A stretch of 63,990 bases of DNA from a virus (taxonomy: Duplodnaviria; Caudoviricetes), in IMG/VR virus record IMGVR_UViG_3300021960_000068, positions 1-63,990 of that record. One strand, given 5' to 3'. A program made the position numbers and the translations under genes. The notes below the pieces were generated by a model that saw only the letters and a list, made by a program, of their open reading frames with translations, did no database searches and had not been told where the DNA came from. Of this stretch, positions 1-63,450 are shown piece after piece. Position 1 is the first letter of the stretch, and each line of letters starts with the position of its first letter.

Positions 1-303
1 CTTCATCTTTAGTTTTAATCTGCATCTTTAACAAATGTACCGTTAACCATTTTACCCGTGCGCTTTGCAATGACATCATACGCAGACTTAATACAGTCTT
101 CAATAAACATATCTTCAAACTTAGCGATGCTTGTAAGCACAACAATCATATCACCTATAGCATCTTGTATTTCTGCTTTGTCGTTTTTAAGTAACGCCTC
201 TGCAAGCTCACCTGATTCTTCCATAAGCTTTAGATACTGAGTTCTAGCATCACCTTTATCGTATATGCCTTTGTCAGTAGCCCAACTACGTATGTCATCA
301 AAC
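1..303. repeat. Terminal direct repeat / circular overlap, copy 1
   Basis: Matches 63688-63990 except at positions 5, 42, 66, 72 and 177. Confidence 0.95.
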
Positions 304-773
304 ACATTACCCGGTGTTTCATCTAACGCTGGTTCAGCGATGAAAGCCTCGTAATAAGCTTTGTTATATATATAACTACGATCTTCGTTATACATAGACG
401 TTTTAGCATTAGCCATTATCCATGGTATCGTTTGCTCGTTAATCTCGAACTGGCCGTGATACGTTCGCCATTTTAAACCTACGCTATCCATTAAATGTCC
501 TTTGAGTTTGTTTAAAGGTACTGGAAATGTTGAGGTTTGTTCTGTTGCGTTTATCTTCATTTTATTAAATAAATTTTTATACAATTTCCTGTCTGTCTTA
601 TAGCCATAAGACTTTTGAAGTTCTATTTCGCGGTCTGATATATAATCTATATCGTCTGACTGCTCAAGAACTTCATACTCATTCTCCTTATATCCTTGTA
701 TAAGGGTTACGCGGGTATTAAGATCACGTGTTACGCCTATCTTTTTACCCGGTATGTGATACAAATAATACAT
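15..773 (-). CDS. MazG-like NTP pyrophosphohydrolase (C-terminal) fused to a GIY-YIG-like N-terminal region
   Basis: C-terminal KLMEESGELAEA...DAIGDMIVVL (ExxE/D motif of all-alpha NTP-PPases); N-terminal YYLYHIPGKKIGVT...R...E. Confidence 0.8.
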   Translation of the reverse strand: MYYLYHIPGKKIGVTRDLNTRVTLIQGYKENEYEVLEQSDDIDYISDREIELQKSYGYKTDRKLYKNLFNKMKINATEQTSTFPVPLNKLKGHLMDSVGLKWRTYHGQFEINEQTIPWIMANAKTSMYNEDRSYIYNKAYYEAFIAEPALDETPGNVFDDIRSWATDKGIYDKGDARTQYLKLMEESGELAEALLKNDKAEIQDAIGDMIVVLTSIAKFEDMFIEDCIKSAYDVIAKRTGKMVNGTFVKDAD

Positions 774-1427
774 CTAATTTAATTTATCGTTATACAAATG
801 TAAGTTGTGTGCGTGATGGTAATACCAGCCGGTTTGAATAGACAATCTGTCTGCGACCATCTCTTGCAATGATGCAAACTGATACTGATCATTACAGAAA
901 CCGTACCATAGATCATTAGATCGCATATAGACAGACATACAAAGCTTATCATCAATGATACTAAACTGAACTGCATATGTACAGGGTGTGTCGTGTCTGT
1001 AATCGTATATTTCTTTACCATCATATATACTTATAGCAGCTTGCCTAGTGCTTTTATTCTTCCTAAGTATGTCTACTACTTTACCTAACTGGTTTTCTCT
1101 GTTCCATTGCCAACCATAATTAGAGTTGACATTGCCGTTAGCATCTGCCATACGTTTCCATATCTCAGGTATCTTACCATATAGCTCACCTAACTTACTT
1201 ATATTTCTGTTACCAGATAAATACCAAGCCCACTCGGCCGCAGCATATTTCTGATTCCATTTTCTATATCCTGCTTTTATCTTCTTATCAGAAGGGTTGT
1301 GAATATAAAACCCAACATTAAACAAAGCTTTAGTGTTATCAAAGTCTACACCTTTATCTTTTATCTTGATGTAGAAATAATCAAAAGCTTCGCTTGCTGT
1401 TTTGAAATTACTCTTTGTGCTTATCAT
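774..1427 (-). CDS. Thymidylate synthase-fold enzyme, most like dCMP hydroxymethylase (T4 gp42 type)
   Basis: IPEIW...NSNYGW, catalytic PCT, and MRSNDLWYGFCND with Asp at the ThyA Asn177 position. Confidence 0.8.
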   Translation of the reverse strand: MISTKSNFKTASEAFDYFYIKIKDKGVDFDNTKALFNVGFYIHNPSDKKIKAGYRKWNQKYAAAEWAWYLSGNRNISKLGELYGKIPEIWKRMADANGNVNSNYGWQWNRENQLGKVVDILRKNKSTRQAAISIYDGKEIYDYRHDTPCTYAVQFSIIDDKLCMSVYMRSNDLWYGFCNDQYQFASLQEMVADRLSIQTGWYYHHAHNLHLYNDKLN

Positions 1428-1668
1428 AATAATATTTATAAAACTTATAAATGTTCTCCCATATCATATCTTTAATGTATATACTAGGGGATCTGTTTAT
1501 TTTACCGTTTAACGTTATATCTATATACCATTCAGCTGGACCTTTAGCAAAGGGTGATATGTATATCTTGTTTCGTATACACCATAGCCTAGCCTCGTAT
1601 TCTTCTTCGGTAGGGCTGTAGCTACCCATATCCCACTCTTTGTTTTTCTTATGCCAAGCCGCTGCCAT
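1408..1668 (-). CDS. Hypothetical protein
   Basis: 86-aa ORF packed between primase and the TS-fold gene. Confidence 0.7.
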   Translation of the reverse strand: MAAAWHKKNKEWDMGSYSPTEEEYEARLWCIRNKIYISPFAKGPAEWYIDITLNGKINRSPSIYIKDMIWENIYKFYKYYYDKHKE

Positions 1669-3381: not shown

Positions 3382-3385
3382 TTAA

Positions 3386-3457
3386 TTAATCTTCTATTAG
3401 TGTTACATTACCATCATTATCTGTATTGATACTAATGTAATCGTTTTCATCTATCAT
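3386..3457 (-). CDS. Acidic 23-aa micro-ORF (MIDENDYISINTDNDGNVTLIED)
   Basis: ATGA-coupled to the upstream micro-ORF; fills the gap before primase. Confidence 0.4.
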   Translation of the reverse strand: MIDENDYISINTDNDGNVTLIED

Positions 3458-4027: not shown

Positions 4028-4037
4028 AATAATTGGT

Positions 4038-5307: not shown

Positions 5308-5331
5308 AGGTATATTGGTATTTACTTATTA

Positions 5332-5361: not shown

Positions 5362-5370
5362 AATTATAAC

Positions 5371-7072: not shown

Positions 7073-7074
7073 AA

Positions 7075-7554
7075 TTAACTGATATAATGTGGTCGTATAA
7101 TTTTCTGCTCATTTTTGTTTTTTACTGTGTGTTTTTCGTTTTCATAATAATTCCAATATGCTGTAACGCTATCGTTATTAACTTTATACTCGTCAGGCAT
7201 ACACTGCGGTGGTTCTGTAAATGTTTCAGAAGTAATACCGTCAGGACAAAAGCTTAATGCGTATCTGCATTTATCTATAGTCATATGGATTTTACCATAT
7301 CTTTTAGTATACTCTTGCCCTAACGCTATCATGTGCTCGTACAACCAAAAATAATTTGGCCTGCTTTCCCTTACCCATATAGTAGACGGGTGATTTAAGT
7401 GTGCTTGTCTGTAAGGCACATCATTGGGATCACCATACACGTGATGTGCGGTGCAAAGCATTTGAGCTGATTCCAATATCATCTTTACTTTGTGCTTGTC
7501 ATAAAAATAACTAGCAGCTCTGTAAGGATCGTGATCGAGATAAAATATATTCAT
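7075..7554 (-). CDS. Pyrimidine-dimer DNA glycosylase (DenV/endonuclease V-like)
   Basis: MNIFYLD...DKHKVKMILESAQML...HLNHPSTIW...PQCMPDEY. Confidence 0.85.
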   Translation of the reverse strand: MNIFYLDHDPYRAASYFYDKHKVKMILESAQMLCTAHHVYGDPNDVPYRQAHLNHPSTIWVRESRPNYFWLYEHMIALGQEYTKRYGKIHMTIDKCRYALSFCPDGITSETFTEPPQCMPDEYKVNNDSVTAYWNYYENEKHTVKNKNEQKIIRPHYIS

Positions 7555-7629: not shown

Positions 7630-8463
7630 TTACTCATAATTTCTAATTGTTTTGTAAAGAGGGTGTCTGTAGCTACCGGCTTTAGTACGTTCGAAGTACG
7701 TAAATGTAGCTATTTTACCGATATAGTCGTGAATATTTTCTAGTATATAACGACGATCAGAGTAGTTGTAACCCTTACCGATTGGACAACCAAACTCATT
7801 ACCATCATCATCTACCATCAAGAACTTACCAATAAGACCTGTAAACTTACCTTTACCAGCTTCATAGCCAATAATAGTAGCTTCGGTGTCACTGAAGTCT
7901 TTGAATTTTTGTAGGTTGTAGCTACGTTTTTGCTCATACGGACCGTTAAGTCTTAGTATAGAGCCTTCGTAACCTTGTTTTAAAAAGCCGTCGTAGTGTA
8001 CGTTAGCAGCCTCTTCATACTTGTTAACCTGTATAGTTTCAACAGATATAACTGAATCTGACCATAAGTTTTTACTTGACAATAGCCAGTTAAGTCTGTC
8101 TTCGTAACTAGGACCTTCAGCTATCATATCGTATACATGGTATTGTATTAGTCTATGTGCATTTAGACGATCCTCGTCAGTCGGTTTTTGTTTTCTGACC
8201 AATGATATGATTTGTTCGAAATCGTCTCTTAGATCGTGATTATACAACTCACCATCAAGAACAGCATTAGGTTGCTGATCAAAGAACTTTTCAAGATCTA
8301 TCTTAATATGTTGTAAGTTGTGGAACTCTTTACCGGTACGTGAGTACGCACCATCTTTAGTAAATATACAGCGCACGCCATCGAGCTTAGGTTGTATAAA
8401 AACCTTCTCTGAGAAATCAATTCTGTTCTCATTTACTTTATGCGCTAGCATAGGTTTTATCAT
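7630..8463 (-). CDS. ATP-dependent DNA ligase
   Basis: QPKLDGVR (KxDG), LDGELY, EGSILR, KFK motifs. Confidence 0.95.
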   Translation of the reverse strand: MIKPMLAHKVNENRIDFSEKVFIQPKLDGVRCIFTKDGAYSRTGKEFHNLQHIKIDLEKFFDQQPNAVLDGELYNHDLRDDFEQIISLVRKQKPTDEDRLNAHRLIQYHVYDMIAEGPSYEDRLNWLLSSKNLWSDSVISVETIQVNKYEEAANVHYDGFLKQGYEGSILRLNGPYEQKRSYNLQKFKDFSDTEATIIGYEAGKGKFTGLIGKFLMVDDDGNEFGCPIGKGYNYSDRRYILENIHDYIGKIATFTYFERTKAGSYRHPLYKTIRNYE

Positions 8464-9877: not shown

Positions 9878-9878
9878 A

Positions 9879-24192: not shown

Positions 24193-25749
24193 ATGACTGA
24201 CAAAATTGTCAAAAATCTTAACTTTGGCCAAGAGGCTAAAGATAAGGTGTTTAAAGGTATAGATAAATTAACAAAGGCTGTTAGCTCCACACTTGGGGCT
24301 AGCGGCCAATGTGTAATACTAGAAGATGATCAGGGCAAACCTGTCATTACAAAAGATGGTGTAACCGTAGCAAACGCTATTACACTATTAGACCCAGTAG
24401 AAAATATGGGTGCTACGCTTCTAAAGGAAGCTGCTAGAAAAACTGTTCAAGAAGCTGGCGATGGAACAACAACGGCTACAGTACTAGCGCACTCAATTTT
24501 AACTGAAGCGTATAAAAATATCGATAAAGATAATATACGTAATATTAAAAACGGTATAACAAGTGCTGTTGATAAAGTAATTAATTACTTAGAAAAAAAG
24601 GTTATTGCAGTAGAAGGTAGTATGCTAGATGATGTAGCTACTATTAGTTGTAACAACGATGCTGAGCTTGGCAAAATAATCGGTGATGCTTTTAAAGCTG
24701 CTGGTGAAAACGGTGTTGTTATAATGGAACCTACAACAGAAGACAAAACAGAGTTTGAACTTGTCGATGGTGTGCAATACGAAAAAGGTTTAACAAACTC
24801 TCACTTTATAACAAGCAAAGAAAAACGTATAGCAGAGCTTGATAACCCACTTGTGTTACTAATTGAGTCACCTATAGAATCTGTACGCAAGATTCAATCG
24901 GTACTTGAATACGTAATTAAAAACAAAAAGCCTTTACTTATTATTGGTGATTTAGAAACCGAGGTGTTAGCTACGCTAGCAATGAATAAGGTTAAAGGTA
25001 ATATAAAAGTAAATGTAGTAAACGCACCTACATACGGTATAAATAAAAAAGACACAATGTCTGATTTAGCTATGCTAACCGGTGCTACTGTTATCAATGA
25101 AGATCTTGGTGATGACTTAGACGTTATAAACCCAGACTTCCTAGGATCATGTTTTAAGAGCACAACTAGTGATACAGATACAATACTTCAAGTAGATACT
25201 TCTACTGACGAGATAAAGCGTTTAATTGATTCAGTTAAAAAACTAATATCTAAAGCTAAAGCTCCCGGTGAAATTATAAGACTTGAAAAAAGATTAGCTA
25301 GACTATCAGCGAAAGTTGCAGTTGTAAAAATAGGGGCTAACTCAGAGATAGAGTTAAAAGAAAAATCAGATAGAGTCGAAGATGCTATCTGTGCTACTAA
25401 AGCCGCGGTAAAAGAAGGTATAGTATCTGGAGGTGGTATAGCTCTTCGCGATGCATCTAATAAAACCAAAGGTAAAACCGTTGGTGAAAAGATATTGCTA
25501 GAAGCTATTAAAGCTCCATTTAAAACTATACTAAATAACGCTGGACTAGAAGAGGTTGGTACGCCCGAAGAAGGTATGGGTGTTAATGTAGTTACAGGTG
25601 AAACTGTTCACATGGTTGATACGGGGATTATAGATCCTTTACTTGTAACTAAAAGTGCACTCAAACACGCGGCTTCAGTGGCTACCACTATATTATCTAC
25701 AGATTGTGTAATCAATAATTTAAGAGTTGGAGATGAAAGCAGTAGGTAG
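24193..25749 (+). CDS. groEL: Chaperonin GroEL (phage type)
   Basis: ITKDGVTVA, AGDGTTTATVLA, DRVEDA, GIIDP; no GGM tail. Confidence 0.97.
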   Translation: MTDKIVKNLNFGQEAKDKVFKGIDKLTKAVSSTLGASGQCVILEDDQGKPVITKDGVTVANAITLLDPVENMGATLLKEAARKTVQEAGDGTTTATVLAHSILTEAYKNIDKDNIRNIKNGITSAVDKVINYLEKKVIAVEGSMLDDVATISCNNDAELGKIIGDAFKAAGENGVVIMEPTTEDKTEFELVDGVQYEKGLTNSHFITSKEKRIAELDNPLVLLIESPIESVRKIQSVLEYVIKNKKPLLIIGDLETEVLATLAMNKVKGNIKVNVVNAPTYGINKKDTMSDLAMLTGATVINEDLGDDLDVINPDFLGSCFKSTTSDTDTILQVDTSTDEIKRLIDSVKKLISKAKAPGEIIRLEKRLARLSAKVAVVKIGANSEIELKEKSDRVEDAICATKAAVKEGIVSGGGIALRDASNKTKGKTVGEKILLEAIKAPFKTILNNAGLEEVGTPEEGMGVNVVTGETVHMVDTGIIDPLLVTKSALKHAASVATTILSTDCVINNLRVGDESSR

Positions 25750-25996
25750 AAATATAGTAATAAAAAAGAAAAAAGAAGACACCGTCAAAAAAACTGACGG
25801 TGGTCTTATGTTAACTGGTAAACAAAGAGTTGATATTCGTTATAAAGAAGCGACTATACTTCATTGTGGTGACGACGTTAAAGGTGTAGAAGAAGGTCAA
25901 ACAATATTCTACGATAAAAACGCTGGCCACAGACTTGAAGTAGACAAAGAGGTTTTTTATGTTATACGAGATGTAGACGTTGTAGTTGTGCTATGA
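25733..25996 (+). CDS. groES: Co-chaperonin GroES-like
   Basis: KTDGGLML mobile loop, GDDVKGVEEG; follows groEL. Confidence 0.85.
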   Translation: MKAVGRNIVIKKKKEDTVKKTDGGLMLTGKQRVDIRYKEATILHCGDDVKGVEEGQTIFYDKNAGHRLEVDKEVFYVIRDVDVVVVL

Positions 25997-50593: not shown

Positions 50594-53500
50594 ATGGCTA
50601 AATACAAGATTGGTACGGATCTATATGATTTACCTGAAGAAAAAGTAGAATCTTTTTTGTCTAAATATCCTGATGCTGTAGAAGTTACAGAAGAAATACA
50701 AACTGACCCTACGGAGGGAAAGACAAACGGTGCTGTGGAAACGGATGCGGCTGTAGCACCAGTAACAACTCCAAGCAGAGCATCCATGATTGTAGATGCT
50801 CAACCAGAGAGTACGGTATCAGACTCGGCAGATACTTCTGGGGAATTACAAGCAAATGATCAAGGTTATTTTAGACAAGAAAGAAAAAAAGGTAGATCAG
50901 CAGATTCTATTAGAAGAGATACATACGAAGAAGGTTCTTTAGCTGCTATAGAATTTGATAAAAAATCTGATGAAAGAAAACAGCAAGCTACGTTAGCAAC
51001 TAAAGAAATACAAACAGCGCAAGAAAATATACCTCAAAAAGATATACAATCGCAGCAAGCAAACATATATTTTGATTTACCAAGTATAGCCCCTAGAAAT
51101 AAAATAGATTATGTCTATCAAGGTGTTTATGGTGGCCAATCTAGAAAGCCTATGTTTGAATCTGATGAAGATTATACTACTTATTTAAAGGATAAGCTAG
51201 GTGATAAGTATGATCAATATTTAGAGTTTAATAAAACAGGTTCTATAACGCCTAATGGTACTCAAGAAAATGAAGACGAATTAAGATCATTACAAGTAGA
51301 TGCTAGAAATCAAATATCTGCTAAAATAAGTAATGACATGTTATATAATGTTCCTGAAGATGTGCAGCGGTACATGACATCAAGTCCTGTTTTTGCCAGT
51401 GGTAATACTCTGGAAGAACAAAAATTTGCTATAGATGAATTAGGAAACAACATAGGTCAGATGAGAGTCAACTATGCTGAAGGAGTTAAAGCTTATAACG
51501 AAAACGCTGTTCCGTTAATAGATCAAATAAAATCTATAGATAACACTATAAAAGATTTAGGTGGAACTAATAAAGGTTTACAATTTTATGAAGCTGGTCA
51601 AGTAGGGGGTTTAGACTCTCCTAAACGTATACAGCAGTATAATGATTTAATAGAACAAAGAAATTCTTTATTAAACCAATATAATGAAGGAGGTTTCAAT
51701 GTTTTATACGATGGTTTAATATCTCAAGAAAGAGTAATAAATCAAGAAGCTAAAAATTATATTAACCTAGTTAATACTAGCAGAAATAAAATAGTAGATT
51801 CTGAATTATTAAAAGAAGCTATATCAAAAGATTACTCCGCGACAGCTAGAGTTGGTAGAGCTTTTGATGAGTTTTTTTTACAGAGCGGTAGAAATGTTTT
51901 AGATCTTAGCGCTGAAATAGGTTTACAAGCTTATAAATTCTCTTTAATGCCTCAATACAGGCCAGCTATAGATGATGTTATAAGCGTTGTTCAGCAGAAC
52001 AATAAAAATTATAACTTAGAAATGGATGCTAAAAGAAAGCAACTTCCAACAGCTCCAACGTTAGACGATATAGGTGAAAATAATATAGGATTTTTTGATT
52101 GGTTTTCTGTAGCCATGCAAGATAACTCTCCGACTATAGCTACGACTTTTATACCAGGTGGTTTAGCAGTTAAAGGTGCTGCTGGTGTTAAAGCAGCTGT
52201 TAAAACTGGAAGCTACGCTGCTAAAAAAGCCGCATTACAAAACCAAAAAAAGCTTTGGTTGGCTGGTAAAAGAACATTACAAACAGCTTTCTTTGTTGCT
52301 GAAACAGGTGGTCAATATGGTAGGCTGCAAACAGAAGAAGGTGATAGAGAAAAACAAATATCTTTATTACAATCTCAACTAAACGAAACTGAAAGTTTAG
52401 AAGATAGAACAAAAATTTATAATAAAATTGAAGAATTAAAATCTGTAGAAGATTATTCTTTATTTCAAAAAGCCTTTACTTCTTTTGGATATGGAACTAC
52501 AGCTACACTAGCCGAAACTTTTGGTACTTTAAAGCTTATACAAGGCGGTAAAGCTTTAGCTAAAAACATAGGTACTCAAGCCGCTAAAAAAGAATTTTAT
52601 TCTAAGCCATCTACATTTGCTGCTGGCATCATAAGCAAAGCAGTTCCTGGTCTAAGCCCTTTGGTTAAAGGTGTTGCTGTAGAAGAAATGGAAGAAACAC
52701 TTACGCAAGTAAGTCACAACATGTTTGACATGTTTGTTTTAGGTGAAGACAAAAATTTAATAGATGGTTTAGATAAAGATTTTTTTGCTAATGTAGCTGT
52801 TACTAGCTTTGGTATTATGTCTCCTAAGACTACCGGCAATGTTGTTAACATTATTAAAAATGAATTTAGAACTAAACAAGAAGTAGTAGATAATCAAAAC
52901 TTAGCTGTAGAATTAATTGAATTAAACGAGGCTATACCTGCTAGTGCAGAAGACGCTAAAGTTATAAGAGAAAGAAAAAGAAACATATTAGAAGAGCTCG
53001 CTTTAAACGACGCTGTCAGTCTTCACAAACTTAGGTACATGACACCTGTTCAAATAGAAGAGGTTGCTGATTTAAATAGACAAAAACGTAAGTTAAAAGA
53101 GCAAATGTTTTCTCTTGGTAGAACAGGTGAAAGATCTAAAGTTCAAGAGCAAAAGCAAGCTGAAATAAACAAAGAGCTTTATGCTATAGAAAGAAAACAA
53201 CAAGAGATTTTAAATTCAAAAGAAAGAGCTAATAGACAAAAAGCTAAACAAGTTTCTGAGGAATTAGGAGATAGCTTTGCTAATGCAGACGCTGCTTACT
53301 GGTATGGTTTTAATGATTTTTATAATGAAATTGCTATGGCCCAAATGGGTGATGGTGATTTTATAAGCGCTACTGCAGAAGTAAATAATGAATTAGGTAT
53401 ACCTGTTTTAGATTATAAAAATTTAGACGAAGAGTTAAAAAAATATAATGAAACTGATAGAGCTGCTATCAAACTTGGTTTACTAGGCGAAATAAATACT

Positions 53501-56500
53501 GAAACAGGTGAGGTAATACAGCCTCCTGTATATGCCATGCAGATTGGTAAAGATATTATAATAAATCAACCTCTTATAGATCAACAAATAGGTTTAGCGC
53601 CTACAAGCGGCGGTGCTAAATACGCTGCTCTGGCTCCTCTTGAAGAACTTTTTCACCTTAATAACAAGGGTAAGAAAATGAAATTCGATGGTGATGCTAA
53701 GCTTGCCGTTGATGAAGCTATTAAAGTATTAGAAAATAAACTAGAGCTAGGCGAAATATCTCAAGAAAACTTTAACGACTTAACTGAAAGGTTTAAACTT
53801 TATAAAGATGGTGAGACATTTGACGTGGAAGAACTCATAGCGCAGATGAACAACGCTGTTGCATTAGGCGATATAAAACTTAGCGATATAGCTAGTACAC
53901 CATCTTTAAAATCTTTTTTAAACGGAGCTATACGTAATGTATTTGGAGATCAAAGCTGGATGCTTAATCTTAAAACATCAGATGATGTGTTTAATTTTAT
54001 TAAAAACTTTCAAGCTGATATTCAAGGAGAGGTAAGTCTTCAACTACCAGACGAAGATGATTCTACTATTAAACAATCTAAAATATACCAAGAAGTAGAA
54101 ACATTTAAAGATGATTTAGTAAATGAACAAACTAAAGATGCTACTGCTTTTTTAATTGCTGATAAACTAGAAAACGAAGTTGATCGTAGATTAAAATTAG
54201 ATGTTGATCCAGAGACCAAAGAAGATATAGTTAGAAACTTTTTGTTCGATGATAAAAGAGGTTTGCTTGGGTTATTACAAAAATACGATCCAGCTAGAAA
54301 CGAAAGTATAATGGGTTACTTAAATTCAACTACGCCTGGCGGTAAATTACTAGACGCTAGACTTATTGAGTTTTATCAAAATGATCCTAGATACAATCAA
54401 ATAATTCAGTCAACTACAGATGAAGCTGTTCAACGTAAAGCCGAAAGAGTAACTTCAGAAGACACCACAGAGACAACTGCTGAAGATGTTACAGATAAAC
54501 CTTTAGCCAAAAAACCTACTGAAACTGTAGTATATAGTGACGAAGTTTTAAGTAGCGTAGGCGCGGCTAACGCTGAAGCGCTAGAAAATAGAATTACAAA
54601 AGAAATACAAAAAGCGTTTAAAGGTCAAGATATCTCTAGGTTTAAAGAGCTAAAAGATATACCAAAAAACATAACACAGTTATACGCTGATATGTTTGGA
54701 CTTTCAACTGTAGACGGTATCGTTGATTTTAAAAGAAACTTTCCTAAGCTAGACGAAGGAGCTGTTAGAAAAATACGTACGTTTTTAAATAGAAATGCTG
54801 AAGATGATTTTCGTAGGTTTCCAAAAACAAAAGGTGACGATAAGAAAGCTACTGGTGTAAAGCAAACTAAGCTAGGTAAAGTTATGTATGATGCTAATGA
54901 TAATTTTATTGGCACATTAAAACAATACAAAGACATACTTCAAGGTAAAAATATAACTCTTCCAGCTTACAATGGTGAGATGATTGAGTTTAATAGGTTA
55001 GATAAAGACGGTAACAAGTTACCATTATATAGAGACTCACAACACTATAAAGCAGCGTTAAAGTTTCATATACAAAATCGTATAGCTGAAGATGTTATGC
55101 CTGATAAAGCTAAGAGATTAAGCGCTGGACTTAAGTTTAGTAAAAAAGCATTGATAGATGTTACTCAGGCTAGAGATATTAACGCGGTAGCAAAATTACT
55201 AGGTATATCTAAAATTACTGTAAATGATAACAATAGAGTTGAAAAACAAAAGCAAATGGAAGAAGCTATAGTAGCTGCTAAAATTCCTAGTTGGATGTTT
55301 GAGGGTTCTAAGTTTGGTAATTTTGCTAGAAGAAAAGTTAACGGTGTTAGAGTAGATTTACCCGCTAGAGGTGGTTTATATTACGGCGGTAAAGATCCAG
55401 CGTATCAAAGAGCTTTAGGTTTAGCAAAACAAAACGATGCTGATTACAATATAAAACCCCCTAAAAGAGTTAATATTAAAAAAGCTTTTACTAAAGAGGG
55501 ACAACAACAAGGTAAAGATAATTTAAAAGCTTTAGAGTTTTTTGGTAATAAATTAGCTGATGCTGTAGCTAAAAATCAAATGCCACTAGAAATAGCTTCA
55601 TTATTTATTTCTTCTGGTTATCAAGCTACAAATGGTATTATAAAAATAGCCGCACCATTTAAATACTTTTCTAAAGTTTTTAAATACGGAACTACACCAA
55701 AACATAGTAAAGGTGAAAAGTTTAGAGAAGAACACAATCCTCCTGCTTCAGTAATTGGAGCCACATTAATATATGGTATAGCAACTAATAATATGAGTAC
55801 TGTAATGCCTAATATTAAAAACAACTATTATCAAACTAAACTTTCTAAAGCTGATGATCAAAAACTAGATGACGCTAAGTTAGATGCTACGTTACCTGTT
55901 GGAACAACTATAGCAGATAACCCTGCTATTAGATTTATTGAAGCTGGTATTGATCTTAATAGTATTGTTAATTACGAAACAGGTCAGACTATAGCAGAAG
56001 AGCTAGGTGTTGCTTTAAAATCTAGTGATGTAAATGTAGATACTGTATTTGAACAGAATAAAATACTAAAAGAAGTATTAAGTGGAGATATAACAGCTAA
56101 AACAGGGCAGGATAGATTAAATGAATTTGCTAAATTAAAATCTATACCTAAAGCTGGTGTTGGTAATAATAACGAAAATAATACTATTAAGTTTAGCAAG
56201 CAAGTACCTAATCAAGAAATACTTGATAACTTAGGTAATGCAGATCAGGCTATGGCTAATGCTAGAAACCCTGAAGCGCCTGTTAAAAAAATACGTGTAT
56301 TTGATTTTGATGATACATTAGCTAAATCAAATAGTCAAGTTCTTTACGAACTTTCCGATGGCACAACAGGTAAATTAAACGCTACTCAATTTGCGGAAAG
56401 ATCTAGCGAACTACAAGAGCAAGGAGCTGAGTTTGATTTTTCAGAGTTTAGTAAGGTTATTGATGGCAAAAAAGGGCCTGTGTTTAAAGCTATAGAAAAC

Positions 56501-58828
56501 ATAGTTAAAGCTAGAGGTGCTGAAGACGTGTTTATACTTACAGCTAGACCTGCTAACGCTGCTGGTCCTATAAAAGAATTTATGGACGCGCTTGGTGTTA
56601 ACTTACCTATAGAAAATATTGTAGGTTTAGGCGATGGTAAGGCGGAAGCTAAAGCACGTTGGATGACGGGTAAAGCTGCTGAAGGTTACAACGACTTTTT
56701 CTTTGTAGATGATGCGTATAAAAATGTTAAAGCAGTTCAAGATGCGTTAGATGTGTTTGATGTTAAATCTAAAACACAACAAGCTAAAATTAAGTTTAGT
56801 AAAGCATCTGATCTTGATAAAGGTTTTAATAACATACTAGAAAACAAAACCGGTATAGCATCTGAAAAAGAATACGGTAGAGTAAAAGCTGAAGTAGCTG
56901 GAGCTGGTAAAGGTAGATTAAATTTCTTTATACCACCGTCAGCTGAAGACTTTACAGGTTTATTATACGCTACGCTTGGTAAAGGCAAACTAGGTGATCA
57001 ACAAATGGCGTGGTATAAGACTCATTTGTTAAACCCATATGCTAGAGCTATGAATGAATTATCATCTGCTCGTATAGCTATGATGAATGATTATAAGTCA
57101 TTAAAGAAACAATTAGAAATAGTACCTAAAGACTTACGTAAGAAAGTTCCAGGCGAACCGTTTACGCGTGAGCAAGCTGTACGTGTGTACATATGGAATA
57201 AACAAGGTATGGATATACCTGGAATAAGTAAAAAAGATCAAGCTGATCTTAGTAAGTATGTAATTGACAACGCTGAGCTACAGGTATTTGCTGATAGACT
57301 TATCGCTATACAAAAAGGTGATCAGTACGCTGGGCCTAAAGAAGGTTGGCCAGCTGGTACAATAACCACTGACATGCTTGAAGGTCTTAACACTACAAAA
57401 CGAACTAAGTACTTAGAGCAATGGCAGCAAAATGCAGATGTTATATTTTCTGAAAAGAACCTAAACAAACTTGAAGCTGCTTATGGTAAACCATATCGTA
57501 AAGCTTTAGAGAATATGCTACAACGTATGAAGTCTGGTCGTAATAGAAACTTCCAAGGCGATACGTTAACAGGTAGAGTTACTGATTGGCTTACAGGTAG
57601 TATTGGTACAATAATGTTCTTCAACACAAGATCAGCAATACTTCAAACTATATCTAGTATTAACTTTGTTAACTTCACTGATAACAATATACTAGCTGCG
57701 GGTAAAGCTTTTGCAAATCAAAAACAATACTGGTCTGACTTTATGACGCTTATGAACTCTGACTTCTTAAAAGAACGTCGTGGTGGTTTACGCATCAACG
57801 TTAACGAAGCTGATATTGCAGACATGGCAAAAAGAGGTGGAGCTAGAGGTGTTATAAATAAACTACTTGAGTTTGGTTTTACACCTACACAGATAGCAGA
57901 TAGCTTTGCTATCGCCTCTGGTGGCGCTACGTTTTATCGTAATAGAATAAAGTCTTTGAAAAAACAAGGTATGACAGATGCTGAGGCTGAAGCTCAAGCG
58001 TTTGTAGATTTTAGAGAGACAGCAGAAGAGTCACAACAGTCGTCAAGACCTGATAGAATATCAATGCAACAAGCCGGTCAATTAGGACGTCTTGTATTGG
58101 CTTTTGCTAACACGCCAGCTCAGTATGCTAGACTTATAAAGAAAGCTGCTAGCGATCTTAAGAATGGCAGAGGTGATGCTAAGACTAATATAAGTAAGAT
58201 TATATACTACGGTGTTGCGCAAAACTTATTGTTTAATGCTTTACAACAAGCTTTGTTTGCGTTTGCTTTTGATGATGATGAAGAAGATACAGACGAGCAG
58301 CAAAAGAAATATGTTAGCATAGCTAACGGTATGATGGACTCACTTCTAAGAGGTATGGGGTTAGGCGGCGCTGTAGTTTCAGTAGGTAAAAATGCTATTA
58401 TACGTATTATAAACGAGATGGAAAAGAAACAACCTAAGCTTGAGAAAGTAGGTTATGAACTTACTAAACTATCTCCACCTATATCTGCTAAGCTATCACG
58501 TGTAAACCAAGCCGCGAGGTCTTACCAATGGGATAAAAAAGAAATGATGGAAAAAGGCTGGAGCTTAGATAACCCAGCTTACTTAGCAGGTGCTAATGTT
58601 ATAGCAGCACTTACCAACATACCGCTTGATAGAGCTGTAAAGAAAACTAATAACGTAGTACAAGCTACATCACAAGATTTAGAAACTTGGGAACGCTTAG
58701 CGTTACTAGGTGGTTGGCAAGACTGGGAAATCGGTATTGACGAGGAAAAACCTAGTAACAAACCGCAACCTAGAAAAACAAAACCAAGATCTAGAAAAAC
58801 TAAAAAACGTAAAACCACAACAAGATAA
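50594..58828 (+). CDS. Giant multidomain (polyvalent) internal virion protein, 2744 aa
   Basis: HAD motifs VFDFDDTL/ILTARP/FVDD, EEHNPP motif, degenerate zincin LEELFH, sigma-r2-like segment, C-terminal ETAEESQQSSRP helical region. Confidence 0.75.
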   Translation: MAKYKIGTDLYDLPEEKVESFLSKYPDAVEVTEEIQTDPTEGKTNGAVETDAAVAPVTTPSRASMIVDAQPESTVSDSADTSGELQANDQGYFRQERKKGRSADSIRRDTYEEGSLAAIEFDKKSDERKQQATLATKEIQTAQENIPQKDIQSQQANIYFDLPSIAPRNKIDYVYQGVYGGQSRKPMFESDEDYTTYLKDKLGDKYDQYLEFNKTGSITPNGTQENEDELRSLQVDARNQISAKISNDMLYNVPEDVQRYMTSSPVFASGNTLEEQKFAIDELGNNIGQMRVNYAEGVKAYNENAVPLIDQIKSIDNTIKDLGGTNKGLQFYEAGQVGGLDSPKRIQQYNDLIEQRNSLLNQYNEGGFNVLYDGLISQERVINQEAKNYINLVNTSRNKIVDSELLKEAISKDYSATARVGRAFDEFFLQSGRNVLDLSAEIGLQAYKFSLMPQYRPAIDDVISVVQQNNKNYNLEMDAKRKQLPTAPTLDDIGENNIGFFDWFSVAMQDNSPTIATTFIPGGLAVKGAAGVKAAVKTGSYAAKKAALQNQKKLWLAGKRTLQTAFFVAETGGQYGRLQTEEGDREKQISLLQSQLNETESLEDRTKIYNKIEELKSVEDYSLFQKAFTSFGYGTTATLAETFGTLKLIQGGKALAKNIGTQAAKKEFYSKPSTFAAGIISKAVPGLSPLVKGVAVEEMEETLTQVSHNMFDMFVLGEDKNLIDGLDKDFFANVAVTSFGIMSPKTTGNVVNIIKNEFRTKQEVVDNQNLAVELIELNEAIPASAEDAKVIRERKRNILEELALNDAVSLHKLRYMTPVQIEEVADLNRQKRKLKEQMFSLGRTGERSKVQEQKQAEINKELYAIERKQQEILNSKERANRQKAKQVSEELGDSFANADAAYWYGFNDFYNEIAMAQMGDGDFISATAEVNNELGIPVLDYKNLDEELKKYNETDRAAIKLGLLGEINTETGEVIQPPVYAMQIGKDIIINQPLIDQQIGLAPTSGGAKYAALAPLEELFHLNNKGKKMKFDGDAKLAVDEAIKVLENKLELGEISQENFNDLTERFKLYKDGETFDVEELIAQMNNAVALGDIKLSDIASTPSLKSFLNGAIRNVFGDQSWMLNLKTSDDVFNFIKNFQADIQGEVSLQLPDEDDSTIKQSKIYQEVETFKDDLVNEQTKDATAFLIADKLENEVDRRLKLDVDPETKEDIVRNFLFDDKRGLLGLLQKYDPARNESIMGYLNSTTPGGKLLDARLIEFYQNDPRYNQIIQSTTDEAVQRKAERVTSEDTTETTAEDVTDKPLAKKPTETVVYSDEVLSSVGAANAEALENRITKEIQKAFKGQDISRFKELKDIPKNITQLYADMFGLSTVDGIVDFKRNFPKLDEGAVRKIRTFLNRNAEDDFRRFPKTKGDDKKATGVKQTKLGKVMYDANDNFIGTLKQYKDILQGKNITLPAYNGEMIEFNRLDKDGNKLPLYRDSQHYKAALKFHIQNRIAEDVMPDKAKRLSAGLKFSKKALIDVTQARDINAVAKLLGISKITVNDNNRVEKQKQMEEAIVAAKIPSWMFEGSKFGNFARRKVNGVRVDLPARGGLYYGGKDPAYQRALGLAKQNDADYNIKPPKRVNIKKAFTKEGQQQGKDNLKALEFFGNKLADAVAKNQMPLEIASLFISSGYQATNGIIKIAAPFKYFSKVFKYGTTPKHSKGEKFREEHNPPASVIGATLIYGIATNNMSTVMPNIKNNYYQTKLSKADDQKLDDAKLDATLPVGTTIADNPAIRFIEAGIDLNSIVNYETGQTIAEELGVALKSSDVNVDTVFEQNKILKEVLSGDITAKTGQDRLNEFAKLKSIPKAGVGNNNENNTIKFSKQVPNQEILDNLGNADQAMANARNPEAPVKKIRVFDFDDTLAKSNSQVLYELSDGTTGKLNATQFAERSSELQEQGAEFDFSEFSKVIDGKKGPVFKAIENIVKARGAEDVFILTARPANAAGPIKEFMDALGVNLPIENIVGLGDGKAEAKARWMTGKAAEGYNDFFFVDDAYKNVKAVQDALDVFDVKSKTQQAKIKFSKASDLDKGFNNILENKTGIASEKEYGRVKAEVAGAGKGRLNFFIPPSAEDFTGLLYATLGKGKLGDQQMAWYKTHLLNPYARAMNELSSARIAMMNDYKSLKKQLEIVPKDLRKKVPGEPFTREQAVRVYIWNKQGMDIPGISKKDQADLSKYVIDNAELQVFADRLIAIQKGDQYAGPKEGWPAGTITTDMLEGLNTTKRTKYLEQWQQNADVIFSEKNLNKLEAAYGKPYRKALENMLQRMKSGRNRNFQGDTLTGRVTDWLTGSIGTIMFFNTRSAILQTISSINFVNFTDNNILAAGKAFANQKQYWSDFMTLMNSDFLKERRGGLRINVNEADIADMAKRGGARGVINKLLEFGFTPTQIADSFAIASGGATFYRNRIKSLKKQGMTDAEAEAQAFVDFRETAEESQQSSRPDRISMQQAGQLGRLVLAFANTPAQYARLIKKAASDLKNGRGDAKTNISKIIYYGVAQNLLFNALQQALFAFAFDDDEEDTDEQQKKYVSIANGMMDSLLRGMGLGGAVVSVGKNAIIRIINEMEKKQPKLEKVGYELTKLSPPISAKLSRVNQAARSYQWDKKEMMEKGWSLDNPAYLAGANVIAALTNIPLDRAVKKTNNVVQATSQDLETWERLALLGGWQDWEIGIDEEKPSNKPQPRKTKPRSRKTKKRKTTTR

Positions 58829-59357: not shown

Positions 59358-59394
59358 TAAAGAAAGGGCCCTCAAACGAGAGCCCTTTTTTTTT
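59358..59394. terminator. Bidirectional terminator at the convergence of the two arms
   Basis: AAAGGGC-CCTCAAACGAGA-GCCCTTTTTTTTT. Confidence 0.8.
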
Positions 59395-61159
59395 ATCCGT
59401 CACAAGCGGCGCAGTCAGGATCCATAGCTTGTTGAGCAATGTCACCGCGTAGTACTGATTCAGTACGCATATAATATAAGGTCTTGATACCTTTCTTCCA
59501 AGCATCCATGTGAACCTGGTTAATCCACTTAGGTGTAGCCTCTGAAGGAAACGCTAGGTTTAAACTAACTGATTGATCAATATACTGTTGGCGTATACCA
59601 GCTTGATTAACAAGCTCTAGTTGATTAATCTCTTTGAAAGTTTTAAACACGTTTTTAACTTTGTCAAAGCCTGTAGTTTCTAAATCATCTTGCTCAGATA
59701 ATACTACTAGCTTTTTATTAACATAACCGTAGTCATCTAACGGTAGGTCTTGTATGCTACCACCATCAGCCATTATCTTATCCCAAATTTCTTTAGTGTT
59801 TAATCCAGCTTTTCTTAATACTTTTTCGAGCTCTCTGTTCTTCCTAATGAACGTACCCTTCGCGCTTTGTTCAGTGAAAACATTAGCGGCCCAAGGCTCA
59901 ATACCAGGACTAACATTACCGGCAAGCTTACTATTAGACACAGTAGGAGCAATAGCCCTAAGATGAGTGTTACGAAACCCAGTGCCAACGCACCACAAAG
60001 GTTCACCATAAAGTTCAGCGAGATCTCTACTCGCTCGCTCAGATTCGATTTTAATCTGGCTAAATATTCTTCTAGTTTCATATTGTGCTGTTAATCCCTC
60101 GAAGGGTATTCCATTTTTTTGTAGGTACGTGTGCCAGCCCAGTACTCCAAGGCCAAGCGCTCTACCTTTTTCCGCTGATCTAACTGAATTTGCAAAGCCA
60201 ACTTTGCCTTTCGCTTTTTGTATAAACTCTTCAAGTACTCCGTCCAAGAACCAAATAGCATCGTATATAAGGTTTGTATTCTTCCACTCTTCATATCTTG
60301 ATATATTTAAACTTGATAAGCAGCAAACAAAGCTATGGCTTTCATCTGTGTGTAATGTAATCTCACTACAGATATTTGTCATGTGTACTTTTAAAGCATT
60401 GTCTTTGTATGCTTTTGGATTTGCTTTGTTAGTATTTCCTTTAAACAAGATATACGGTTCTCCAGTTGCTTTTCGTTTTCTAATAAGTTTACTCCATCGA
60501 GCTCTAGCGTCCGCATCTCCCTGTTCAAGACGTCGCATAAACTTATCACCAACAACTGCGCATTGATGTAGGTTAAGCGACTGTCTGTTAACATCTCCTT
60601 TAGGTTCTCTGATCTCAAGCCACTCTTCAAAATCATCGTGCTCAATGTTAATATTAACTGAGGCAGCTCCTCGTCTAACCGATCCTTGATTTGTAGCAAG
60701 TATTGTTGAGTCATATATTTTGCAGAAAGGTACGACTCCGTCTGATGTTCCATTGCCTGTAATTTTAGCGCCAGCGGGTCTGATTTGATTTATACCAATG
60801 CCAACTCCACCGCCATGCTTAGCGAGCAACATCATCTCTAAGTTCTTACCTCCTATATCATGTATACTATCTGCTACATCAATACCAAAGCAAGAAATAG
60901 GTAACCCACGATCAGTACCTGTGTTACTAAGTACAGGGCTAGCAAGGTTAAGCCAACCTTTCCAGATATAATTAAAAAACGTTTCACTTAGCTCTGGTCT
61001 GTCAAGTCTACGCGCAACTGTCTTGCATACTCGCTCGTATGCATCTCTTGGGGTTTCGTCGTAGAGTAAATATCCCCCGGATATAGTTTTCTTGTATACG
61101 TCTGTGTCTCCCCACTCTGGGTAGTCAACTCCTTTTTTCCATTCATTATTCCACATCAT
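59393..61159 (-). CDS. nrdA: Ribonucleotide reductase class Ia alpha subunit (no ATP cone)
   Basis: PISCF, GGGVG, RRGA, TNICSEI, APT, KTLYY, C-terminal CAAC. Confidence 0.95.
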   Translation of the reverse strand: MMWNNEWKKGVDYPEWGDTDVYKKTISGGYLLYDETPRDAYERVCKTVARRLDRPELSETFFNYIWKGWLNLASPVLSNTGTDRGLPISCFGIDVADSIHDIGGKNLEMMLLAKHGGGVGIGINQIRPAGAKITGNGTSDGVVPFCKIYDSTILATNQGSVRRGAASVNINIEHDDFEEWLEIREPKGDVNRQSLNLHQCAVVGDKFMRRLEQGDADARARWSKLIRKRKATGEPYILFKGNTNKANPKAYKDNALKVHMTNICSEITLHTDESHSFVCCLSSLNISRYEEWKNTNLIYDAIWFLDGVLEEFIQKAKGKVGFANSVRSAEKGRALGLGVLGWHTYLQKNGIPFEGLTAQYETRRIFSQIKIESERASRDLAELYGEPLWCVGTGFRNTHLRAIAPTVSNSKLAGNVSPGIEPWAANVFTEQSAKGTFIRKNRELEKVLRKAGLNTKEIWDKIMADGGSIQDLPLDDYGYVNKKLVVLSEQDDLETTGFDKVKNVFKTFKEINQLELVNQAGIRQQYIDQSVSLNLAFPSEATPKWINQVHMDAWKKGIKTLYYMRTESVLRGDIAQQAMDPDCAACDG

Positions 61160-61617: not shown

Positions 61618-62586
61618 TTACCAAATGTCTTCGAAGTCCTCACCTTCGTTAGCTTTCGAATAATCCGTTGGCCGAACCGCGAAAAAATCAGTATGAGTGA
61701 GCCCCCCGGTAAGATGATAGAACCAATCAAGATTATCCGCTGCAGCCTTGTCATACGTGAAGTACGAATCAAGGTCAGTGTAACCAAGCTCAACCAGTTT
61801 TTCATTTGTTCTTTTCTTTATAAAGTGTTTTAAATCATTTGACTTGATACCTTCAATGTCACCCATCTCAAACATCTTATCTATATACTTAGTCTCAAGA
61901 TCAACCATAGTCTCTGCTGCTTTAATAATATCTTTTTTACAAAGATCTTTTAGTTGATTATTCTCTGCGCACATATCACGATATAGTTTACAACCCATTT
62001 TACTGTGTAGACTTTCATCACGCACAGACCATTTCATCTGTTGGCCTATTCCTTTAAGCATGTTACGCAGCTGAAAAGAATATAGAACAGCGAAAGCAGA
62101 ATACAAACTAACCCCTTCAGCGAAGGCGGAAAAAACAGCAAGGCTACGAGCAATGCCACGTGGGTCATCACCGTTGTAACCAACCAGGTTATCAAATCTA
62201 TTTGCTGTTGCTTCTTCGTGGAGAAACGCTTCGAAGTTTTCAAGCCCAAGTGTTTCATTTAAATAACTATATGCGACAGCGTGAATTGTTTCTTGCGAAC
62301 CAAACATCATTGCCATTTGTTGTATCTCGTGTTTAGGAAACCAACCAACTACTTTCTGCGTCCAATAATCAGACACAGCACATTCAGTCTGAGCAAAGCC
62401 TAGTAGGATATTTCCCACTAGGTTTTTTTCTTTGTCTGTTAGTTTCTCTTTCCAGTCTTTAACATCGCCTTGCATTGGTATCTCGGTGTGTAACCAAAAA
62501 GCCTGTGCTTGCTTAAGCCAACCTTCAGTATAGTACTCTGGGTACTCAAACGGTTTATACGCTATGCGCTCGTCAAACAGTCCCAT
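61618..62586 (-). CDS. nrdB: Ribonucleotide reductase class Ia beta subunit
   Basis: ETIHAVAY, EGVSLYSAF, RDESLH, TDFF...DY. Confidence 0.95.
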   Translation of the reverse strand: MGLFDERIAYKPFEYPEYYTEGWLKQAQAFWLHTEIPMQGDVKDWKEKLTDKEKNLVGNILLGFAQTECAVSDYWTQKVVGWFPKHEIQQMAMMFGSQETIHAVAYSYLNETLGLENFEAFLHEEATANRFDNLVGYNGDDPRGIARSLAVFSAFAEGVSLYSAFAVLYSFQLRNMLKGIGQQMKWSVRDESLHSKMGCKLYRDMCAENNQLKDLCKKDIIKAAETMVDLETKYIDKMFEMGDIEGIKSNDLKHFIKKRTNEKLVELGYTDLDSYFTYDKAAADNLDWFYHLTGGLTHTDFFAVRPTDYSKANEGEDFEDIW

Positions 62587-62853: not shown

Positions 62854-63019
62854 ATACTTTTATATTATACTTATCGTGTTCATGTACAATGTCTTTATAT
62901 TTGACATATCCTTTCTGATCCCAAGACCACTTAACAAAATTATCGATCTGACGCTCGGCATACTTCTGCCTAGCTACTTGTTTCGCAAGTTTAGGATTAG
63001 GCGTATTGTCTCGTCGCAT
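62846..63019 (-). CDS. Hypothetical 57-aa protein
   Basis: Open frame filling the gap: ...ARQKYAERQIDNFVKWSW... Confidence 0.5.
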   Translation of the reverse strand: MRRDNTPNPKLAKQVARQKYAERQIDNFVKWSWDQKGYVKYKDIVHEHDKYNIKVYG

Positions 63020-63450
63020 TCCTTTTGATTTTGTGGTTTATATAATGTAACTCCAGGTAGATGATCTACTACGTATCTTTTAAACATCTTCCAGCGTATT
63101 GGAAATGATTCATTAGCTCTACCTTTGGTTTCAATAATAAAACCTTGGCCAATAAAATCAGGTGTGTACTTTATGTTCAGTATCTTTTTGCTACCTCTAT
63201 TTTTGTAATCACCCTTACCATTACCGCATCGTTCATAAGACTCATTAGGAAAATCAAACCCAGAGAATATCTCGTATGTTTGTCCTTCGTATACAGCTTG
63301 TATATTAGCTTTCTTTAAAGCCATATACATATACCGCTCAAGGCCAGAAGCAAAGTTGATACCATCATATGATATCTTCCTTGCTTGTACTGGTCCTTTC
63401 TTTTTACTACGTTTTTTAAACTTCTTCCTTATCATAGTGTAGCCCGTCAT
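62974..63450 (-). CDS. T7 endonuclease I-like PD-(D/E)XK nuclease / resolvase
   Basis: FASGLE, YTPDF, IETKG. Confidence 0.85.
   Translation of the reverse strand: MTGYTMIRKKFKKRSKKKGPVQARKISYDGINFASGLERYMYMALKKANIQAVYEGQTYEIFSGFDFPNESYERCGNGKGDYKNRGSKKILNIKYTPDFIGQGFIIETKGRANESFPIRWKMFKRYVVDHLPGVTLYKPQNQKECDETIRLILNLRNK

Follow-up and report, generated by a model that had tools for sequence, protein, structure and literature searches.

Base replacement in DNA is already a textbook strategy, and gp42 of phage T4, a deoxycytidine monophosphate (dCMP) hydroxymethylase with the fold of thymidylate synthase (TS), is the described protein against which the present locus is best read. The locus lies in IMG/VR virus record IMGVR_UViG_3300021960_000068 (Duplodnaviria; Caudoviricetes), whose positions 1 to 63,990 are called the window below; the form of the strategy considered here is a minimal one, in a common ocean lineage. 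Open reading frame (ORF) 774-1427 belongs to a family that the sources name "thymidylate synthase", a database name that is very probably wrong for this family. Judging from its residues, the encoded protein is very likely a dCMP hydroxymethylase of the T4 gp42 type, and the phage DNA probably carries modified cytosine. For the whole statement, namely that the enzyme makes 5-hydroxymethyl-dCMP (5hm-dCMP) and that some 5-hydroxymethylcytosine (5hmC) is incorporated into the phage DNA, we estimate a probability of about 0.7.

Several residues that separate the activities found on the TS fold have been described, and are numbered here as in E. coli ThyA. According to PMC13326640, the change N177D selects dCMP, L143D or L143E leads to a hydroxymethyl instead of a methyl product, and D169N marks flavin-dependent 5-hydroxy-dCMP synthases. 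The hydroxymethylase signature, as given in PMC6400193, combines an S/T-x-Y motif with an Asp located three positions upstream of the catalytic Cys; the T4 mutants D145N, Y96F and S94N are inactive, and D145, the Asp/Glu at that upstream position, activates water. The same source describes the C-terminal tail of ThyA as sealing the site for hydride transfer, and T4 dCMP hydroxymethylase as being without that tail. Ser167 and Arg126' go with the use of deoxyribose, whereas MilA, a cytidine monophosphate (CMP) hydroxymethylase, has Ala and Lys there, and exchange of its Ala176 and Lys133 reverses the preference of MilA to dCMP (PMC5175136). Finally, PMC8670742 reports that positions 177 and 147 best separate cytosine-modified from unmodified contigs, and that TS co-occurs in the modified contigs with PRA-PH/MazG-type domains.

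Diagnostic residues, fold and phylogeny of the TS homolog

The ORF that the first-pass annotation had placed at 774..1427, with IPEIW...NSNYGW and PCT motifs, was recovered with exactly these coordinates on the minus strand. Its 217-residue translation carries KIPEIWKRMADANGNVNSNYGWQW, DTPCTY and YMRSNDLWYGFCNDQY, and its motifs read KIPEIW...NSNYGW, DTPCT and YMRSNDLWYGFCND. PF00303 covers residues 54-216 (E 8.2e-26; 91.2 bits, cut-off 24.3), and four PHROGs named thymidylate synthase match the protein. All of the NCBIfam thymidylate synthase equivalogs score far under their cut-offs, the best reaching 70.8 bits against a cut-off of 327.

The protein was aligned with T4 gp42, E. coli ThyA, RB69 gp48, the TS homolog of Xanthomonas phage XP12, SPO1 gp29 and two paralogs from Bacteroides phage BF486P2, each taken from its own record. 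Asp180 of the window protein falls opposite T4 Asp179 and ThyA Asn177, as the first-pass annotation had proposed in pointing to a T4-like Asp at this place, and Cys149 falls opposite the catalytic Cys (C148 in T4, C146 in ThyA). At ThyA positions 143, 146, 147, 165, 167, 169 and 177 the window protein has D C T M S D D, identical to T4 gp42 at all seven; the same positions read L C H Q S D N in E. coli ThyA, N C P L S D D in the XP12 homolog, E C T M S N D in RB69 gp48 and D C N N S D N in SPO1 gp29. Further residues of the window protein are R126 and, at positions 92-94, S-N-Y (own R128 and S102-N-Y104), and its signature in its own numbering is S102-x-Y104, D146-x-x-C149, S170, D172, D180, R128, H210 and Y212. 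Only 5 residues follow Tyr209 (own Tyr212), compared with 55 in ThyA, 61 in XP12, 28 in T4 and 12 in RB69.

The conserved motif is not a matter of chance, because eight residues (Y104, C149, R169, S170, D172, D180, H210 and Y212) are invariant in 60 aligned homologs. Among 193 close family members, D-x-x-C is present in 192, the sole miss being a fragment, while S-x-Y and the Asp at the ThyA-169 column are present in all 193. The pattern extends to 113 full-length representatives of 50%-identity clusters, where Asp143 occurs in 107, and Cys146, Asp169 and Asp177 each occur in 112 (the exception is a misaligned row).

The sequence and fold features of a T4-type dCMP hydroxymethylase are thus all present: the TS fold, the catalytic Cys, Asp177, Asp at Cys-3, S-x-Y, Asp169, Ser167 with Arg126, and no ThyA tail. 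An ordinary thymidylate synthase, or a uracil-specific dUMP hydroxymethylase, would suit the family name and the position of ORF 774-1427 as the sole TS/ThyX gene (a six-frame search found one PF00303 gene in the genome). However, residue 177 is Asp where ThyA and SPO1 gp29 have Asn, residue 143 is Asp and not hydrophobic, residue 147 is Thr in place of His, the sealing tail is absent and the equivalog scores fall far short, and we regard a uracil-specific activity as extremely improbable.

A dCMP C5-methyltransferase like that of XP12 or the ThyA N177D mutants, giving DNA with 5-methylcytosine, would have Asp177 in common with the window protein, and according to papers cited in PMC8670742 Asp at 177 by itself turns a TS into a dCMP methylase. 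The XP12 homolog, however, combines its Asp177 with a ThyA-like architecture, including the 61-residue tail, Asn143, Pro147 and Leu165, and sits with ThyA outside the query clade, whereas the window protein has the water-activating Asp146, S-x-Y and no tail that could seal the site for hydride transfer. A methyltransferase is therefore very unlikely. Scarcely more probable is a flavin-dependent 5-hydroxy-dCMP synthase like RB69 gp48, DLP3 gp80 and HY126, which would lead to 5-hydroxycytosine. Such an enzyme would agree with the short C-terminal tail, with the likeness to the solved riboflavin-dependent dCMP monooxygenase 9iqc (query-normalized TM-score, TMq, 0.86; target-normalized, TMt, 0.80) and with the place of RB69 gp48 in the same 124-row superclade. 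The diagnostic mark of these synthases is absent, though, since position 169 is Asp (own Asp172, invariant in the 60 homologs and Asp in all 193 relatives; D171 in T4), the folate-type residue, and not the Asn of RB69 gp48, and the genome annotation (a PHROG scan of 67 ORFs and a Pfam scan of 43 ORFs) revealed no glycosyltransferase or other tailoring enzyme and no sugar-nucleotide genes.

The fold by itself cannot tell the candidate activities apart. The AlphaFold2 model of the TS homolog has a mean confidence (pLDDT) of 96.5, and Foldseek relates it at probability 1.00 to MilA, T4 dCMP hydroxymethylase and ThyA, with TMq values of 0.89, 0.76-0.78 and ~0.79, respectively. Solved relatives found by sequence are MilA (E 3e-18), one ThyA (E 8.7e-18) and T4 dCMP hydroxymethylase (E 1.8e-16). 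MilA is thus the best solved match by both routes, which might suggest a CMP (ribonucleotide) hydroxymethylase like MilA or BcmA. The window protein, however, has Ser170 and Arg128 in place of MilA Ala176 and Lys133, the pair whose exchange turns MilA to dCMP according to PMC5175136, and its gene sits in the phage replication module beside ribonucleotide reductase (RNR); a ribonucleotide substrate is accordingly judged a most improbable choice.

A homodimer with active sites shared between subunits, as in the T4-type enzyme, is also predicted. The score was 0.89, against 0.42 for the best of 3 controls, and exceeds a mark attained by 20/30 solved pairs and 1/23 single chains; contact agreement between runs is at least 98%, with a pLDDT of 94, and Arg128 contacts Ser170 of the partner subunit. 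This result may stem from likeness to solved TS dimers.

In a FastTree phylogeny of 126 rows (from which P0165, misaligned, and P0147, fragment-like, were left out), the query groups with T4 gp42, RB69 gp48 and SPO1 gp29 in a 124-row clade (support 99) from which ThyA and XP12 are excluded. The query itself lies in a 28-row short-tail clade with BF486P2_00032 (support 99), while T4 gp42, RB69 gp48 and SPO1 gp29 form long branches whose exact placement is unsure. The central claim of the first-pass annotation, a dCMP hydroxymethylase in place of a thymidylate synthase, draws support from residues, tail, equivalog scores and tree clade alike.

Proposed route to modified DNA and its weighing

The most likely scheme is as follows. 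The TS homolog would be a minimal, tail-less, homodimeric member of the TS superfamily that works like T4 gp42. Phage RNR and host enzymes would lead to dCTP, which the translationally coupled MazG-domain protein would split into dCMP and pyrophosphate, both feeding the enzyme and lowering the dCTP pool. Asp180 would read dCMP, Cys149 would attack C6 of dCMP, and the one-carbon unit of 5,10-methylene-tetrahydrofolate (CH2-THF) would be added at C5; the exocyclic methylene intermediate would then be quenched not by hydride transfer but by water, which Asp146 would activate while Ser102 and Tyr104 keep it in place. The product would be 5hm-dCMP (putatively, dCMP + CH2-THF + H2O -> 5hm-dCMP + THF). 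Host kinases and the host replisome would make and incorporate 5hm-dCTP, and the phage DNA would carry 5hmC, fully or partly, and be protected from restriction. Fold, signature residues, linkage of the genes and gene content can be read directly from the sequence; the catalytic product, the MazG substrate, host phosphorylation, incorporation and protection are inferred.

Host kinases and replisome are needed in this scheme because neither a nucleoside monophosphate (NMP) kinase nor a DNA polymerase could be recognized in the complete genome. Searches in all six frames gave no match to PolA, PolB, the thymidylate-kinase family, ThyX or dCMP deaminase, the ORF scans recognized no gp1-type dNMP kinase and no gp56-type dCTPase, and a Walker A scan of the genome found its sole clear motif in the primase-helicase. 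These three approaches agree with the first-pass annotation, which had recognized no dNMP kinase, glycosyltransferase or DNA polymerase, and its inference of host phosphorylation and incorporation, or else of partial substitution, is consistent with what this genome, rated 100% complete, encodes. One hidden kinase candidate, a weak AAEKVGKT at residue 46 of ORF 28406-29017, was rejected; that ORF is without any family match. Separately, a large protein of the structural module (Table 1) includes a weak polynucleotide-kinase/phosphatase-like stretch with a DFDDT motif, which we take to be of the HAD phosphatase type. With regard to the host, PMC13326640 reports that E. coli replicates 5hmdC plasmids when T4 dCMP hydroxymethylase and a nucleotide kinase are expressed, and host polymerases can therefore use the 5-hydroxymethyl nucleotide.

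Restriction-site palindromes offer an indirect view of the DNA itself. Five complete genomes with the pair of TS and MazG genes (the window itself plus four contigs from IMG/VR, at 68-73% identity in TS) were compared with seven terminase relatives, namely MW202828.1, Flavobacterium phage elemoE, Maribacter phage Panino, Cellulophaga phages phi13:2, phi38:1 and Calle_2, and Tenacibaculum phage Gundel_1, none of which (0/7) has a TS-family gene. Expected counts came from a maximal-order Markov model. In each of the five gene-pair genomes, none of the 12 C-containing 4-bp palindromes had an observed-to-expected ratio (O/E) below 0.5, the minimum being 0.55-0.80, while the seven relatives without the TS gene had 2, 6, 3, 0, 2, 2 and 2 such palindromes, and GATC, CCGG, CGCG or GGCC was wholly eliminated in four of the seven. 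Strong avoidance of C-containing palindromes is thus seen in 6/7 relatives without the gene pair and 0/5 genomes with it (Fisher two-sided p 0.015, uncorrected for shared ancestry). Such relaxed avoidance fits protection by cytosine modification, and is only suggestive. In the window, AATT has a z of -4.4, and GATC, CCGG, GGCC and CGCG are at expectation.

Several points weigh against the reading as a modifying enzyme of the T4 type whose product reaches the DNA. On the side of the enzyme, MilA and not T4 gp42 is the closest solved relative by sequence and fold, 9iqc aligns well and has a short tail as well, the D169N rule derives from a limited set of tested enzymes, and T4 gp42 stands on a long branch whose place beside the query's group is weakly supported (81-92). 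On the side of the DNA, no phage enzyme was recognized for the route from 5hm-dCMP to the triphosphate, with no kinase family found, and TS homologs without a cognate kinase gave only a trace of modified base in vivo according to PMC13326640. The palindrome contrast is also open to other readings. Avoidance of A/T-only palindromes is likewise weaker in the gene-pair genomes (mean z -0.3 to -1.2, compared with -1.2 to -3.8 in the relatives; Mann-Whitney p 0.007), and the relaxation may therefore reflect hosts, which differ between the genomes with and without the gene pair, and not cytosine modification. Moreover, the gene-pair genomes form one clade and thus amount to a single evolutionary contrast. 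Finally, some sites remain depleted in the window, with CATG observed 75 times against 135 expected (z -6.1), GTAC at z -3.5 and GGTACC found once against 11 (z -4.0). The depletion of CATG was itself set aside as an argument against modification: similarly mild values (0.76-0.82) occur in two relatives that have no TS gene, and an O/E of 0.55-0.8 may be background.

Another possibility is that 5hm-dCMP is made and little or none of it reaches the DNA, so that substitution is partial or the product serves to manipulate the nucleotide pool or as precursor of a further modification. The missing P-loop kinase, Tmk family, PolA and PolB, the trace incorporation just mentioned and the depleted CATG, GTAC and GGTACC sites would all agree with it. 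In addition, about half of the early-region ORFs, many of them small, are without a family, leaving room for unrecognized tailoring enzymes, and TS-MazG pairs of another genome backbone adjoin a pyridoxal phosphate (PLP)-dependent enzyme and proteins of ~300 aa. Nevertheless, hundreds of contigs retain the gene pair, its catalytic residues all intact, strong loss of C-palindromes is confined, among the genomes compared, to relatives without the pair, and a MazG protein that removes dCTP would favor high substitution. We consider this outcome unlikely, and prefer the reading in which an enzyme of the gp42 type supplies 5hmC to the phage DNA.

A much stronger version of the latter can be formulated: that in marine Flavobacteriia podophages of a very common clade most or all cytosine is replaced before replication by means of just two dedicated proteins, the tail-less 217-aa dCMP hydroxymethylase and the T5orf172/GIY-YIG-like-MazG fusion, that phosphorylation and incorporation of 5hm-dCMP are wholly left to host NMP kinase and replisome, and that the lost avoidance of C-palindromes is the evolutionary trace of protection. 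This version is speculative, and we would doubt it more readily than accept it. Should the phages in fact carry 5hmC, a considerable fraction of the DNA of marine flavobacterial phages would resist many restriction enzymes, would be liable to uneven handling by enzyme-based library preparation and nanopore base-calling, and would be a target of type IV restriction. The stripped-down gene set also raises the question of whether host kinases and polymerases are enough for base replacement.

The MazG neighbor, gene content and distribution

Window bases 1-303 repeat 63688-63990 with 5/303 mismatches; the circular junction is real, and the window is one circularly closed genome of ~63,687 bp, with a G+C content of 35.6% and an IMG/VR completeness rating of 100%. 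Relatives of its large terminase were found in 87 phage records, comprising 68 from Flavobacterium, 15 from Cellulophaga, 2 from Tenacibaculum, 1 from Maribacter and 1 uncultured. The PHROG and Pfam scans showed a podophage-like structural module on the plus strand and, on the minus strand, an early/replication module with primase-helicase, Erf, exonuclease, a sigma-like factor, ligase, a DenV-like glycosylase and both RNR subunits. Across the junction, the gene order on the minus strand is RNR alpha, RNR beta, DUF1064, a 98-aa ORF, MazG, the TS homolog, an 86-aa ORF and primase-helicase (Table 1).

Table 1. Coordinates of genes of the window that are mentioned in the text
Feature	Position	Strand	Match or remark
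TS-fold enzyme of 217 aa, predicted to be a minimal, tail-less deoxycytidylate 5-hydroxymethyltransferase of the T4 gp42 type	774..1427	-	PF00303, signature residues
252-aa fusion: T5orf172/GIY-YIG-superfamily-like N-domain (~1-70), middle region, MazG domain (~152-252)	15..773	-	PF03819, PF01503
Conserved 98-aa helical protein	63416..63712	-	11-nt overlap with the end of the MazG gene, across the circular junction
DUF1064/Holliday-junction-resolvase-like protein	62974..63450	-	PF06356, 29.2 bits (cut-off 24.7)
RNR small subunit	61618..62586	-	phrog_86, E 1.3e-69
RNR large subunit	59393..61159	-	phrog_84, E 9.3e-152
86-aa ORF between primase-helicase and TS homolog	1408..1668	-	Overlaps TS start by 20 nt
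T4 DenV-like pyrimidine-dimer DNA glycosylase	7075..7554	-	PF03013, E 1.2e-04; phrog_624, E 5e-54
ATP-dependent DNA ligase	7630..8463		Adjoins DenV-like glycosylase gene
GroEL and GroES	24193..25996	+	GroEL: phrog_5725, E 5e-134
Second GroES-like protein, 201 aa	29946..30551	+	
2744-aa structural-module protein	50594..58828	+	Residues 1889-2066: phrog_415, E 1.4e-05

The start codon of the MazG gene directly abuts the stop codon of the TS homolog, with no spacer. Its product passes the cut-offs of PF03819 (27.1 bits, cut-off 22) and PF01503 (23.9 bits, cut-off 21.3), and matches phrog_1992 (E 6.8e-32) and, in a profile search of the PDB, 1vmg (E 2.5e-08). VIA-align Z scores of 9.4-8.2 relate it to MazG, PRA-PH, the S-2L MazG-like protein and mouse RS21-C6, of the dCTPase family. 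E185, E186, E189, D204 and D208, which we take to be the metal-binding residues, are invariant in 38 homologs, and domain, fold and conserved acidic residues together place the protein in the MazG family. It is a candidate dCTP pyrophosphatase that would supply dCMP. The choice of dCTP as its probable substrate is based on the linkage to TS and on the preference of a cyanophage MazG, which favors dGTP and dCTP (PMC6850273).

For a survey of the linkage, 80 IMG/VR loci were selected out of at least 582 confirmed relatives. Homologs of MazG were present in 75 of these loci, of the primase-helicase in 69, of the 98-aa ORF and of DUF1064 in 63 each, and of the 86-aa ORF in 32. The linkage also recurs in a different genome backbone, where the partner of TS is a bare 97-aa MazG domain. 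In loci of that backbone (L016:383-3690, L065:2666-6020 and L072:154-1068) the TS-MazG pair lies directly downstream of genes for a PLP-dependent enzyme (PF00291; phrog_7093, "threonine dehydratase"), for two ~300-aa proteins without assigned function (one of them in phrog_13881) and for a 186-aa protein, likewise unassigned. This gene group is a candidate for further modification of the hydroxymethyl base.

The N-domain of the window's MazG protein (window 549-773, minus strand) has invariant Y2, Y5, I7, K11, G13, R21, Q26-G27-Y28, S46, E49 and Q53, and its predicted secondary structure starts strand-strand-helix-strand-helix. Fifteen of 24 homologs match PF10544 (T5orf172; best E 9e-06) and MUG113 in Pfam, both presumably families of the GIY-YIG clan, with the window's own copy under threshold. 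An assignment to GIY-YIG found no match in hhalign comparisons with T4 SegA and a SegE-like protein or in a PDB profile search, and the matches from two fold searches of the whole protein all lie on the MazG domain.

The first-pass annotation had described a neighbor cluster across the circular junction made up of a MazG-like enzyme, a second all-alpha nucleoside triphosphate pyrophosphatase (NTP-PPase) at 63416-63712, an endonuclease I-like gene and RNR. The junction, the MazG protein and the RNR subunits hold, and the other two identities are not supported. The 98-aa ORF has invariant R20, G24, Y28-G29 and Q51-E52-E53..D56, and Pfam (E <= 5), NCBIfam, PDB profile, hhalign and ESM Atlas searches all failed to place it in an NTP-PPase family or any other; its best PDB profile match was dCTP pyrophosphatase 1 over 36 residues at a non-significant E of 1.4, and hhalign against the MazG profile gave a probability of 0.3. 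The supposed endonuclease I gene passes the DUF1064 cut-off, scores 16.9 bits against Phage_endo_I (under the cut-off of 29.1) and is labeled Holliday junction resolvase in PHROGs (phrog_190, E 2e-12). On this basis its product has the look of a junction resolvase rather than of a nuclease acting on host DNA, and probably is a neighbor and not part of the modification pathway. The full T4-like logic of gp42, gp56 and host-DNA degradation, with exclusion of the normal nucleotide, could not be confirmed. The 86-aa ORF has no family match in Pfam, PHROGs or NCBIfam.

The TS family is large. At least 582 IMG/VR stretches were confirmed as members, and 8000 of 8000 scored candidates belong to it at E <= 1e-5. 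A megablast search of window 1-12000 against phage records gave zero matches, and the literature searched, in which the name BF486P2 does not occur, held no paper on this phage clade or on the DNA of that Bacteroides phage. Near-identical DNA occurs in 14 DNA-type runs from seawater, estuary and virome samples (13 studies), each with at least half of the sampled words, and the stretch is also present in 6 metatranscriptomic runs; these public runs exist as contigs, which are informative on neither base modification nor transcription. In four metatranscriptomic libraries, contigs map to parts of positions 1-6000 and overlap portions of the TS gene, with DNA carry-over possible. Their coverage peaks at the start of the primase-helicase gene (its 5' end) and across Erf (3200-3400 and 5000-5400), with word depth to ~2900, against a depth of 0-6 in the TS region, which is a hint only, as contigs cannot rank expression.

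Comparison with known systems

The XP12 homolog has Asp177 in common with the window protein and differs in its ThyA-like length and tail and in Asn143, Pro147 and Leu165; its gene adjoins those for dihydrofolate reductase and dCMP deaminase. We take XP12 DNA to carry 5-methylcytosine and this homolog to be its dCMP methyltransferase. RB69 gp48, DLP3 gp80 and HY126 (PDB 9iqc) share the fold and Asp177 with the window protein, and like it have a short tail and an acidic side chain at position 143; they depart from it in Asn169, where it has Asp, and in their use of flavin and O2. MilA, the CMP 5-hydroxymethylase of Streptomyces rimofaciens (PDB 5b6d and 5jnh), shares Asp at both 143 and 177, but has the ribose-preferring Ala176 and Lys133 in place of Ser and Arg in the phage enzyme and is ~100 residues longer.

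The uncultured phage contigs of the MetaGPA study (eLife 2021, PMC8670742) resemble the present locus in gene arrangement as well as in residues. As described there, they have an Asp177 TS with a residue other than His at 147 and a linkage to a MazG/PRA-PH pyrophosphohydrolase; compared with these contigs, the window genome gave no match to a dCMP deaminase or carbamoyltransferase. T4 gp42 (PDB 1b49/1b5d and 6a9a) has the same fold, the same seven diagnostic residues, the NSNYGW and MRSND..GF.ND motifs and no ThyA-type tail, at 27% identity, with a length of 246 aa against 217 and with 28 residues after Tyr209 against 5. Around the enzyme, a MazG-domain fusion stands in the window where T4 uses gp56, and the gp1 kinase, the glucosyltransferase and a phage polymerase were not recognized.

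The closest relative from a cultured phage is BF486P2_00032 of Bacteroides phage BF486P2, annotated as deoxycytidylate 5-hydroxymethyltransferase, which has the same signature and 45.5% identity over 89% of the query. The gut phage differs in having a second Asp177 TS paralog and a dUTPase nearby. Its two TS-fold paralogs (L001:5156-5917 and L001:7989-8669) both have Asp177 and D-x-x-C, and lie 2 kb apart with the dUTPase between them. Cultured BF486P2 would be a ready experimental system for this enzyme clade.

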